NCBI GenBank assembly: GCA_014905635.1
Contig: JABVCE010000004.1
Location: 1,426,001 to 1,490,000, forward strand
Direction of reading: 5' to 3'
Source of the DNA: Scenedesmus sp. PABB004
Taxonomy: Eukaryota
Length of the DNA: 64,000 nt
Within the stretch, counting starts at the first letter, position 1, and every line of letters starts with the position of its first letter. The notes under the pieces are model-generated. The model was given only the letters and a program-made list of their open reading frames with translations. It searched no databases and was not told the DNA's origin. Of the stretch, positions 44,753 through 49,325 are shown piece by piece. A program made the translations under genes and the position numbers.

Positions 44753-47700
44753 TCACGGGGCCGCGCGGCAGCTCGCGAGCGGCGTCGGCGCCGCCTCGCC
44801 GTGCGTGAACAGGCCCTCGAGCAGCGCCAGCGCGGCGTAGCTCTTGGGCCCGATCCAAAACACCTTGCCGCACCCGCCGCACTCGAAGAACTCGTCGACC
44901 ACCTCGAGCACGCGCACCGGCACGCGCGCCGCCGCGTCGCCGCGGGGGATGCGGTGGAACGCCGCGGCGTTGCACGCGGCGCAGCGCGACAGCGGGTCGG
45001 CCCGGTCGAAGCTGATGCCAAAGTGCGCGCTGACCTCGGCGAGCTGCTGCGCGGGGTTGTCGCTGCCGAGCAGGACCACGCTGCCGCCGACGTCGCGCCG
45101 TGCAGCGAGCTTGGCATCACGCGTGAGGAAGAGCCGCCCCTCCTCCGCCGCGGCGCGGACGAGCCCGGCGAGCGCCTGCGCGCCGCCCGCCTGCTGCAGC
45201 TCCGCCCGCTGCGCCTGCTGCGCCTCGTGCGCCTGCTGCGGTGCCCGCGCCTGCTGCGCCGCCTGCTGCGCGCGCTGCTGCTTCCTGTTTGGCGGCGTCA
45301 CGGCGCGCGCATCGACGCCGAGCGCTCGCAGCCAGCGACACAGCCGGCCGAGCATGCTGTCGACTAGGAAGCACAGCTGCTGCTGCGGGTGGTGGGGCGG
45401 CCGGCCGGCGGCGCCCGCGGTGCCAAGGTCCGGGCCCGGACGGCCAGGGGCGAGGCCTGCTCCCGCGGCGGCCGGCGGCGGCGCGCCCGCGACGTCGACC
45501 ACGCTGCCGCCGGACAGCAGCAGCAGCTGCTCAAAGGTGAGGACCACAACCGCGTCGCTGCCGCACTGCACGTACAGCTGCGCGTCGGTGGCGACGTCCG
45601 CCGCCGCTGCCGCCACCGCGCCGCGCGAGCCACGCGCGCTGCCCGCATCGGGGCTGGCGCCGCCGGCGCCGCCGCCGCTGGCTGCGGGCGGCTCGGGGCC
45701 GCACGGCGCCGCCGCCGCCGCCGCCTCGCGCAGGCGGGCGTCGACCAGCACACGCATGCTCGCGCCAAGGCCAAACGGCGGCACGCCTGCGCGTTGGGGG
45801 TGAGCGCAGCGCGCTGTGAGGCGCAAGAGCCCGCGCGGGCCTGCGCGCGTGCAGCTGCAGCTGCAGCCGCCGCAGCGTTACAAGCAGCCTCAGCGGGGCG
45901 CTCAGCGCCGGCAGGCGAGCGCGCTCACCTGTGGCAAAGCCAGTCAGATCCCACACCAGCGCGTCGGGCGCAATGCGCAGTGCCCTGCGCCGCACGCCCA
46001 GCAGCGCGGCGAGCTGCGGCGCACAGCGGCAGCACACCTGTCACCGGCCACGCGTGCGCCTCACACAAGCCGCAGCAGCAGCCGGCAGGCTGCCGCGGGC
46101 GCAGGGCGGCGCACGAGCCGCAGGCAAGCCGGTGCAGCGCTGCCAACGCACGCGGCGATCGCCGCGGGCGCGCCGCCCCTGCCACTGCCCGCAGCGCCGC
46201 CCCGGCTGCTGCCGGCGCTCGCGCTGGCGCCACCCGCGCTGGCGCCGGCCGGGCGCGCCTTGTGCAGGTCGAGCCGCTGGTCGCCGCGAGTCACCGCCAG
46301 CAGCGGCTCCTGGCCGACCAGCACCGCCATCGTCTTGGCGACGCGCGCGGGCGGCGCGGCCAGCGCGGCGGCGGTGGCGCGCACGCTCGCGGCGCGCGGC
46401 GGCCCGCCTGCGGCGCGCGGTGCGGCGCGGGGCGTGCTCAGACGGCATGCACAGACGGTCGGGAGCGGGGCCTGCTGCGCCCTCCTCACCCGCGGCTGGC
46501 GCCAGCCGGCGGTGCGCGCCCGCCAGGCCGTGCTGCTGCAGGAACGCGAGTACGCGCTCGGTGCCTGCGGCAGGACGGGGCGGGGCGCTCAGCGCCGGCC
46601 CGCTGCCATGGCCGCAGCAGGCGGCGAGCCAGCGCCCCACCTGGCGGCGCCTCGCAGCAGCTTGCTGCGGCCCCCGGTCCGCCGCTCGGCTCAGGCGCGC
46701 CGCCGCTGCCGCCGCCGCCACGGCCGCTGCCGCCCGCGGCAGCGCCGACGCCCAGCCCAGCGGCGACTGCCACCGCCGCCGCCGCATCCGCCGGCGCGCC
46801 GCCACTCGGCTGCTGCTCCTGCGGGGTGGCCCCACCGTCGCGTCCCGCGGGTGGTGCCTGCGGGGCGCTGTGAGTGAGGAGTGCACGCGCCGCCGCCGAC
46901 GACGCCGCAGCGGCGGCGTCTGCGCCTGCCAGCGCCGGTGCCGCTGCGGCGCGCTGTGCGCACCCGGCTGAACGTGCCGGTGTGCTGCTGCACGAGGCGC
47001 GCGCTGTCCGGCCCCAGCTCGGCGCGCAGCACGTCAAAACAGAGCGGCAAGACCAGCGCGTCCAGCGCGGCGTAGTGAAGCTGGCGCCGGCTCAGGGGGC
47101 GCGACGCCCAGTCGCTCAGCTGCTGGCTCTTGTCTGTGCGGAGCGCGTGAAAGAGAAAGTGTGAGAGAGCGCCGTCAGGCGGCTGCACCTCGCGCGGCCA
47201 GCGCGGCACGGCGGCGCGGCGCCGGGAGCCGCCGGGCGGCCGAGCTCACCCAGCGGCTTGCCCAGCAGCGTCTTGCACAGCGTCGACAGCCCGACGGCGG
47301 AGAGCAGCCGCACAGACCCTCCCTGCAGGGGGGGGGCATGCAGGCGGGCACGGTGGGCGCGCCCACGTGCGTGCGCGCGCGCCGCCGCGCCGCCCCAGGC
47401 GGCGCCCCCCGCGCGCGCACCTGGCGCCGCGCCGCGACGCCGTGCGCCACCCAGAGCGGCCGCAGGTCGAGCACGCCGGCGACGCGCCTGAACGCGGCGA
47501 CCTGCGGCCAGCTCGACGCGAGCTTGCCCAGGTCGCCGGCGAGCTCAAACCCGAGCTTCAGCACGGCGCCGTCGCCAAAGAGCGGGCCCAGCACGGCGTC
47601 CAGCGCGGGGGCGTGGTGCGGCGCGAGCGCGAGCAGGTCGAGCAGCACGGCGTGGCGCCGCGTCGCGAGCTGCAGGACCGCCGCCGGCGACGCCACGCCC

Positions 47701-49325
47701 GGGCTGTGGCTCGGCTTCCACTCCACGTCGATGCCTGCGCGGCGGCGGCCGCCGCGGGCGGTGGCGCGCTCGCGCCAGCCGGGGCGCCGCAGCGGGAGCA
47801 GCAGGCGGGTGCGGCGGGTGCGGCAGGTGCGGCGGCGGCAGCGCACCGAGCACGTCGCTGCCGGCCAGCAGCGCGCGCGCGGCGTCCAGCTGCTCCGGCC
47901 GCTCCACAAAGAGCACCGCGTCATCGCCGACCGGCAGCTGCAGGTACGCCTCGCGCCGCGCCGCCTCCTGCGCCGCGAGCTGCTGCGGGTCCAGCGCGAG
48001 CACGTCTGGCGGCAGGCCCAGCTGCCCCGCGAAGTCCCGCGCGAGCGCCAGCTCGCCCGCCTCTGCCATGTCACGCACGAGCTGCGTCTGTGGGTGTGGC
48101 GGCGGCGGCGGCCGCGCGCGGGCGGGCGGGTGGGTGCGCGCGCGCCGGCCGCCGGGCGCCGGCCGCCGCGGCGCCGGCTGCCGCCGCCGCACCTGCAGCG
48201 CGGCGTCGGCGCCGACGAAGCTGAGCGCGACGGGCCAGAGGCGCTTGCCGACGAGGCGCGCGAGGCTGCGCTGGCGGTAGAGCGCCTCTATGTTGGGGAA
48301 CTCCTCACGCAGCCCCAGCGCCCGCACGGCGCGCGCCGCGGGCTTCAGGCGGTCCAGCGCGATGCACGCCTCCACAAACGTCACCTGGCGTGCGCCCGCG
48401 CCGGCGGCGGCGGCGGCGGCGGCGCGGGTGAGGGGCCGGGCGGCCGCGGGCGCGCGCGGTCGGTGGAGCAGCCCAGGGCTGCTGCCGCTGCCCCTGCCCC
48501 GGCCCCTGCCCCTGCCCCTGCTCTTGCCCCCGGCGCGCGCGCGCGCGCCTGGTCGTCGCGGCCGAGCGTGGCCGCCCACTGCTGCGCGAGGAGCTCTTGG
48601 CCGTCGGCGACGAGCTGCGAGAGGGTCTCGGCCTTGTTCACCGCCTCGTCGAGGCCATCAAAGGTCATCATGATGTGCACAGCGGCCTTGTAGCTCGTCG
48701 CGCTCGCGAGCAGGCCTCCGAGCGCGGCGACGACGCCGCCCCAGTCGGCGAGCTCGGCGCGCGTGAGCCGGAAGGTCAGCGCGGTCTTGGCGGCGAGCTT
48801 AGCGTCGCAGGGGTTGAGCCAGGCCTCAAACAGCGCCGCCGCCGCGGCGCGCACGTCCGGCGGCGCCGCGGCCGCGGCCGCGGGCGGCAGCGCCTCCAGC
48901 ACCAGGTGCGGCAGGCCGGGCGAGAAGGCATCGCGCCCCGCGCGCTGCGCTTCGCCAAGGCAGCGCAGCAAGAAGCGCAGCGAGGCGTCCGCGTCCCCCC
49001 CTGACGCGGCGGCAGCGGCAGGCCACGGCCGTGGGGTCGGGCGGGCGCCGCCGGCGCAGCAGCAACCGCAAGCTGGCCGCCGAGCAGCAGCAGCAGCAGC
49101 AGCAGCAGCAGGCCACGGCCGGGGGGTCGGGCGAGCGGCGCCGCCGCAGCGACTGAAAGCCGCCGAGCAGCAGCAGCGCACCTCGCCGAACGCCGCCGCC
49201 CGCAGTTCCGTCAGGAGATCGCGGAAGTTGCGCTCCCGCAGCTCCTCGTCCAGGGCTGCCAGCAGGGCGGCGGGCTGCGCCGCGGCCAGCGCGGCGCGCC
49301 ACGCGGCGCCGCCATCACCGGCCAT
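44753..49325 (-). CDS. EXD3: EXD3/Mut-7-like 3'-5' exonuclease with internal YbaK-like domain and C-terminal Mut7-C domain
   Basis: GIDVEWKP, LQLAT, LKLGF..GDL, SDWASRPLS..QLHYAALDA; FLVDSMLGRLCRWLR, FLTRD, RCAACN, CGGCGKVFW. Confidence 0.9.

Follow-up and report, generated by a model that had tools for sequence, protein, structure and literature searches.

A predicted gene on the minus strand (49325-44753) of the window, as the whole 64,000-nucleotide stretch of Scenedesmus sp. PABB004 analysed here is called throughout (contig JABVCE010000004.1, positions 1,426,001 to 1,490,000; all coordinates below are counted within it), is, as judged from its sequence, one gene for an RNA exonuclease of the Mut-7/EXD3 family, of green-alga type, in which a domain of the YbaK/INS type is embedded between the DEDDy exonuclease domain and the C-terminal MUT7-C domain. 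The window protein is an algal member of a widespread and old protist architecture that has been mentioned once in print; indeed, an aminoacyl-tRNA editing domain was noted in oomycete Mut7 proteins by Matelska et al. in 2017 (PMC5499597), and public databases contain many such proteins, some of them under the name 'Exonuclease mut-7', so that the novelty claimed for the architecture in the original prediction does not stand. That single sentence of 2017 was the sole mention found among the papers listed in the literature search, which covered papers outside their supplements, where architectures may be given.

Domains of the predicted protein and reality of the fusion

The gene model was guided by homologues (tblastn), its splice sites were checked by script and the spliced protein was assembled computationally; the resulting 1108 residues comprise, in this order, an N-terminal domain, the DEDDy exonuclease, the YbaK/INS-type domain (residues 658-872) and MUT7-C. 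In BLASTP comparisons the model is colinear with the Tetradesmus protein P0003 (window residues 104-783, 55.6% identity) and with the Hariotina protein P0002 (residues 154-925, 49% identity).

The presence of an INS-type domain with its conserved Lys between the exonuclease and MUT7-C in one gene, as originally predicted, is borne out by both Pfam and profile matches. A piece of only 49 residues (46405-46259) matches by itself the Pfam family PF04073, tRNA_edit, with 28.7 bits against a cut-off of 25.5 (E 1.5e-6), while a profile built from 91 related domains gives the spliced domain 96.9 bits over profile positions 9-173 and one built from 13 metagenome domains gives it 48.2 bits, compared with no more than 7.8 bits for any of 1000 shuffles matched in composition; the close homologues match PF04073 with E values of 4e-16 to 1.6e-18. 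The conserved Lys is present as K711, within VAKTMAV (codon 46336-46334). In the INS superfamily this residue is strictly conserved and positions A76, and in every tested member its loss 'dramatically impairs deacylation' (PMC10164551).

The other two domains were recovered by their own profiles, PF01612 on two exons and PF01927 on the last one (Table 1). All five DEDDy residues, namely D406, E408, D471, Y553 and D557, are present and are invariant in 19 homologues; MUT7-C is accompanied by a zinc ribbon with its four Cys. The window protein is a predicted 3'-5' exoribonuclease; in animal MUT-7 and EXD3 proteins, exoribonuclease activity on single-stranded RNA is known, and MUT7-C increases both RNA binding and the exonuclease rate in MUT-7 and EXD3, according to the available part of the relevant paper (PMC11347159).

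Evidence for the fusion also comes from relatives in which no splice model is needed. In intron-poor marine metagenome contigs all domains lie in single open reading frames (ORFs) of 1241 and 1174 codons; of five markers, which comprise the motifs of the exonuclease and of MUT7-C, the Lys motif and the loop, all were found in a single frame without a stop at 12 of 35 loci, and four at seven more. The fusion is therefore real independently of any splice model, and is not an annotation artefact. Moreover, all five long matches to the last exon of the window gene carry PF01612, PF04073 and PF01927, in the same confirmed order, and the three Pfam domains are likewise found in 23 of 23 long matches to the part of a marine relative that extends from the YbaK-like domain to MUT7-C.

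The fold was modelled with AF2 on the domain of an intron-free relative (L012:4147-4710, an alignment of 91 rows), which stands in for the window domain; the model is very confident (pLDDT 96.5, pTM 0.90). In Foldseek it gave 36 matches at E <= 0.001, headed by the Thermus thermophilus ProX structures 2z0k (E 1.9e-12, target TM 0.83) and 2cx5 (E 2.9e-12, 0.84), followed by Haemophilus influenzae YbaK 1dbx (E 1.9e-11, 0.82), APE2540 (E 3.0e-11, 0.82) and Escherichia coli 2dxa (E 2.9e-10, 0.81). The originally suggested likeness to YbaK is thus found for the relative's domain, and extends to ProX. A profile of 19 full-length relatives, searched against solved structures, recovered Nibbler 7jw2 (E 2.5e-25) together with 2cx5 (E 5.6e-14), 1wdv (E 1.1e-9), 2dxa (E 2e-6), 1dbu (E 6.6e-4) and the prolyl-tRNA synthetase (ProRS) 5znj (E 7e-3). 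By profile and Foldseek together the best solved match is 2CX5; for ProXp-7, -8 and -9 no structure is available for comparison.

Exon structure and the adjoining gene

Codon phases fit across all 10 introns, eight of them GT-AG and two GC-AG, from the ATG at 49325 to the TGA stop codon at 44755-44753. The four small exons originally proposed between the exonuclease and MUT7-C (46564-46490, 46407-46259, 46013-45929 and 45786 onward) do join in one frame with matching phases; their acceptors all read ...cag/ and their donors gtgagg, gcgcgc (a GC donor) and gtgagc (here and below a slash marks the splice junction). The same exon edges (46336-46259 and 46016-45927) are reached by tblastn with the Tetradesmus and Scenedesmus proteins. 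The extent first given to the gene, 44753..47735, was too short: an exonuclease exon does lie there, with its first base at 47734, position 47735 being the g of the acceptor AG, and the gene continues upstream to its ATG and includes an additional linker exon at 46857-46641. Pfam gave no match on the short exon pieces 46562-46491, 46013-45930 and 47322-47251, on the N-terminal exons or on the pieces of the downstream gene. An internal intron in exon 1 is possible.

Table 1. Parts of the predicted exonuclease gene, in window coordinates
Feature	Position	Strand	Evidence and remarks
Whole gene model	44753..49325	-	11 exons, 3327 nt, 1108 aa, no internal stops; built from window coordinates
Exon 1, N-terminal domain, ATG at 49325	48549..49325	-	tblastn of P0001, P0002 and P0003 onto 48974-48549
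Intron 1, GC-AG, donor gcgcgc	48385..48548	-	homologues ungapped: ...DDQ/VTFVEAC
Exon 2, N-terminal domain	48193..48384	-	tblastn, splice sites
Exon 3, N-terminal domain to start of exonuclease domain	47847..48087	-	tblastn, splice sites
Exon 4, DEDDy exonuclease, ExoI D406/E408 (47729-47721), ExoII D471 (47534-47532)	47421..47734	-	PF01612, E 6.6e-4, exon alone
Exon 5, exonuclease	47250..47322	-	tblastn, 77-85% identity over 47325-47245 to P0001-P0003; 92% over 47325-47251 to Hariotina P0002
Exon 6, exonuclease, ExoIII Y553 and D557 (47074-47060)	46964..47133	-	PF01612, 31.9 bits
Exon 7, low-complexity linker, least supported exon	46641..46857	-	phase-consistent GT-AG sites alone
Exon 8, N-terminal helix of YbaK-like domain	46490..46564	-	aligned from profile position 9; resembles '...VLAYLSQHGL' of P0002/P0003
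Exon 9, YbaK-like core, K711 at 46336-46334	46259..46407	-	PF04073, 28.7 bits, exon alone
Intron 9, GC-AG, donor gcgcgc	46014..46258	-	direct K/LAALLG join as in all aligned relatives
Exon 10, YbaK-like domain to first part of G..G loop	45929..46013	-	tblastn 46016-45927
Exon 11, first part: rest of loop (GVPPFG), 47-aa low-complexity insert, C-terminal YbaK-like strands	45464..45786	-	profile alignment; ORF shared with MUT7-C
MUT7-C: D907, D988, zinc-ribbon Cys 1033, 1036, 1067, 1070	44753..45370	-	PF01927, 106 bits, E 2.4e-30

The G+C content is 75-82% in every 2-kb interval of positions 1-64000 and all six reading frames stay open over hundreds of codons, so that the length of an ORF is not evidence of coding here. 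As to the splice sites, intron 1 (48548-48385) contains no GT dinucleotide at all, and reading through it unspliced meets a stop; the genome does, therefore, use GC-AG introns, which supports the GC-AG assignment of intron 9 (46258-46014). Both GC-AG introns, two of the ten in the gene, have the same donor, ag/gcgcgc; GC donors may be common in this extremely GC-rich genome. An alternative in-phase GT donor at 46114, which would leave an intron of 101 nt and place 48 low-complexity residues between LDLHK and LAALLG, was rejected as the main form, since among the aligned relatives only Scenedesmus P0001 has an insert there (10 extra residues) and since, in the relative's fold model, a helix begins at this site; it is possible as a minor splice form.

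Two features of the model weigh against its being read as one continuous gene, namely the linker exon at 46857-46641, for which no homology was found, and the junction within the YbaK-like domain, which requires the GC-AG intron 46258-46014. Together with the second non-canonical GC-AG intron and with the visibly imperfect gene models of the close relatives (in P0003 the YbaK-like domain is missing its C-terminal half, and both P0001 and P0003 continue into the next gene), they could indicate that the model joins the transcripts of two genes, one for the exonuclease and one for YbaK-MUT7-C, or that some exons are skipped. Such a merger is very improbable: the phases fit over all 10 introns; the intron-free relatives have everything in one ORF; and P0149, labelled as the complete ORF of a transcript record, carries all three domains. 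Furthermore, MUT7-C shares its exon and its ORF with the latter half of the YbaK-like domain, and no Met occurs between residues 330 and 713 of the model, so that a separate YbaK-MUT7-C protein including the Lys would have no start codon.

Directly downstream, at 44535-43423 on the minus strand, lies a CFAP97/Hemingway-like gene, to which the C-terminal parts of P0001 and P0003 (Pfam Hmw_CFAP97) align in tblastn at 44019-43990, 43882-43772 and 43647-43423. Scenedesmus and Tetradesmus have the same neighbourhood, with both genes merged in their gene models; in the window the TGA stop (44755-44753) divides the exonuclease gene from the CFAP97-like gene. A GT stands right at this stop codon (..cc/gtgaaac), and a read-on splice into the CFAP97-like gene is possible. 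In the region of the downstream gene, at about 44215-44140 on the minus strand, a unit of 9 bp, gcgaccagc, is repeated in frame in about nine head-to-tail copies.

Spread and history of the three-domain form

When the domain alone was searched against 1.84 billion representative proteins, 137 matches were obtained at E <= 0.001, 59 of which have at least 300 residues. All three domains were found in 31 of these long matches, tRNA_edit with Mut7-C in 13, tRNA_edit with the exonuclease in 11, the exonuclease with Mut7-C in one, tRNA_edit only in two and none of the three in one; many of the two-domain matches are likely fragments. In other words, two or all three of the domains are linked in 56 of the 59, and 55 join tRNA_edit to the exonuclease, to Mut7-C or to both. 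The 78 shorter matches were scanned together with the query, and 75 of these 79 sequences match tRNA_edit, one of them also the exonuclease family.

Carriers of the three-domain form include Scenedesmus sp., Tetradesmus obliquus, Hariotina reticulata, Ostreobium quekettii and Cymbomonas tetramitiformis, the streptophyte alga Chlorokybus atmophyticus and the choanoflagellate Monosiga brevicollis, whose protein P0190 (XP_001750135.1) shows the full layout of exonuclease, tRNA_edit and Mut7-C. Many such proteins, some of them named 'Exonuclease mut-7', occur in Phytophthora, Pythium, Lagenidium and Nothophytophthora; in an oomycete-rich set of 40 matches, 30 have all three domains and 37 the editing domain with Mut7-C. 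Since Monosiga carries the fusion, what happened to the YbaK-like domain may have been a loss on the animal stem, and not a gain in algae.

In a quick tree of 70 domains, whose backbone is weak, a single cluster, separate from the fused proteins, unites the short standalone proteins, among them one from an Anaerolineae bacterium, with four changes between fused and standalone labels against 23.8 in shuffles; the window domain pairs with that of Hariotina (SH-aLRT 98). The tree would be compatible with a single fusion event. Two of the 11 matches that combine tRNA_edit with the exonuclease, P0244 (1020 aa) and P0259 (899 aa), differ in domain order, having tRNA_edit N-terminal of the exonuclease and no Mut7-C match; the position of P0244 among the standalone proteins on the tree suggests a second, independent fusion. 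An extra DUF1853 domain (PF08907) is present in P0224 (1253 aa), where it is N-terminal, and in P0144 (1754 aa).

Possible roles of the embedded domain

The architecture can be compared with several better known systems. Like MUT-7, EXD3 and Nibbler, the window protein has an N-terminal domain followed by a DEDDy exonuclease and by a C-terminal MUT7-C (Nibbler being without MUT7-C), whereas the characterised animal proteins have no INS/YbaK domain and act on small RNAs as known substrates; the word tRNA is absent from the available part of the MUT-7/EXD3 paper (PMC11347159). The oomycete 'Exonuclease mut-7' proteins share the three Pfam domains and, in P0025 of Phytophthora capsici, their order as well; the window protein differs from them in that it keeps, as other algae do, the INS Lys where the oomycete clade has Asn, and the oomycete and algal forms are only about 30% identical. 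With ProXp-x/ProX TTHA1699 (2CX5, 2Z0K) and YbaK (1DBX, 2DXA) the domain shares the Lys and the region of the G..PP.G loop and, going by the relative's model, probably the fold; unlike these single-domain bacterial and archaeal proteins of about 155 residues, it is embedded in a nuclease, contains inserts and has a loop one residue shorter. Finally, INS-type domains joined to a partner that provides tRNA affinity or context are described in the available part of a 2024 review (PMC11295145) for the INS of ProRS, for ProXp-ala-ProRS and for plant ProXp-ala with its C-terminal domain; the partners serve aminoacylation or tRNA binding in those fusions, whereas in the window protein they are an exoribonuclease and a PIN-like RNA-binding domain.

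The favoured reading, which is held to be slightly likelier right than wrong, couples the two activities: the YbaK-like module would handle a tRNA-type 3' end, deacylating it where the Lys is kept, and the exonuclease would trim it. The module would dock the 3' end of a tRNA-type RNA by means of the Lys, which in the INS family holds the C75-A76 phosphate; in the algal lineage with this Lys it would probably strip the aminoacyl group that otherwise blocks the exonuclease; the CCA end so freed would then be trimmed by the DEDDy exonuclease, to which MUT7-C would contribute RNA affinity.

A number of observations weigh against this coupling, and the deacylate-then-trim mechanism is weakened in particular by two of them, the short loop and the change of Lys to Asn in oomycetes. 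As to the loop, the original prediction was right that it is one residue short: the G..G distance is 11 residues in 270 of 272 complete domains, 12 in one (Hariotina) and 10 in the window, the shortest and the only such case. According to the available part of PMC11286415, every characterised INS member relies on the Lys together with a GXXXP loop, and under the only canonical splice the window would read G-V-P-P, that is GXXP, where the matching of its Gly and Pro to the published motif is a reading of the present alignment. The splice junction 45929/45786 falls inside the loop; near it no other canonical in-phase donor or acceptor that restores 11 residues was found. A GC donor 6 nt downstream was also considered and rejected, the loop then having 12 residues and not 11.

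As to the Lys, its column in an alignment of 277 domains, which includes near-copies so that the counts are not independent events, reads K in 201, N in 34, R in one and S in one, with a gap in 40. The Asn of 34 of the 237 aligned domains corresponds to the oomycete clade (25 of the 40 proteins of the oomycete set, in the range P0025, P0114-P0143, and nine unnamed representatives). Its occurrence in the whole clade means that deacylation cannot be the universal role of the domain; going by the alignment, the oomycete domain would act without the residue needed for deacylation in the tested INS members. On the same side stand the NCBIfam equivalog YbaK_EbsC (TIGR00011), against which the window exon scores 14.6 bits and its homologues 13-44 with a cut-off of 153.25 (the equivalogs for RNase D and ProRS are likewise far under their cut-offs), the use of a relative's domain rather than the window's spliced domain for the fold model, and the literature, where, widespread as the architecture has proved in protists, no functional study of the exonuclease-YbaK-MUT7-C combination was found among the matches listed.

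Some of these observations are what would be expected if the YbaK-like domain were a catalytically silent reader or scaffold, which, without deacylation, helps to hold an RNA 3' end or simply keeps the arms of the exonuclease and of MUT7-C apart. Besides the oomycete Asn and the window loop, which falls under an otherwise fixed length, this possibility is favoured by the 47-residue low-complexity insert ahead of the last strands of the domain and by the animal proteins, whose exonuclease and MUT7-C act as RNA-binding 'forceps' with no YbaK domain (PMC11347159, available part). It is nevertheless considered clearly less probable than the coupled reading, given that the window domain and 201 of the 237 aligned domains have retained the Lys, that G..PP.G and GAG/GGG, the motifs that form the pocket, vary little or not at all across the fused clade, and that the relative's fold model is confidently YbaK-like.

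An ordinary trans-editing deacylase for translation fidelity, ProXp-x-like and acting for example on Abu- or Ala-tRNA with no coupling to the nuclease, is unlikely. The closest solved relative does point that way, 2CX5 being taken as the representative of ProXp-x, which deacylates Abu-tRNA, in the available part of the 2024 review (PMC11295145). The loss of the Lys in an entire clade, however, is not expected of a fidelity enzyme; the fused domains stand apart from the standalone ones on the tree; and that green algae, oomycetes and a choanoflagellate have all kept the fusion speaks for a joint role.

A broader and more doubtful proposal takes the three-domain form to be ancestral: the MUT-7 of early eukaryotes might have had this form and have acted as a nuclease that surveys 3' ends of the tRNA type, its YbaK-like domain recognising aminoacylated CCA ends, and deacylating them in the lineages with the Lys, to let the DEDDy exonuclease shorten them. 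Animals would have lost the domain when small-RNA pathways took over MUT-7, and in oomycetes it would have become a non-hydrolytic reader through the change of Lys to Asn. The presence of the fusion in green algae, a streptophyte alga, oomycetes and Monosiga fits such an old origin.

For the field of aminoacyl-tRNA editing, the conserved joining of a 3'-5' exoribonuclease and an INS-type domain contrasts with the single-domain picture given in the available part of PMC11295145, where the members of the INS superfamily other than INS itself are single-domain proteins. It raises the question whether the aminoacyl ester shields tRNA 3' ends from the nuclease, and whether the embedded domain removes this shield, a question for which the oomycete clade with Asn in place of Lys and the shortened loop of the alga provide natural contrasts. 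The wide spread of the three-domain form, which includes a choanoflagellate, bears on the ancestral role of MUT-7 before small-RNA pathways.

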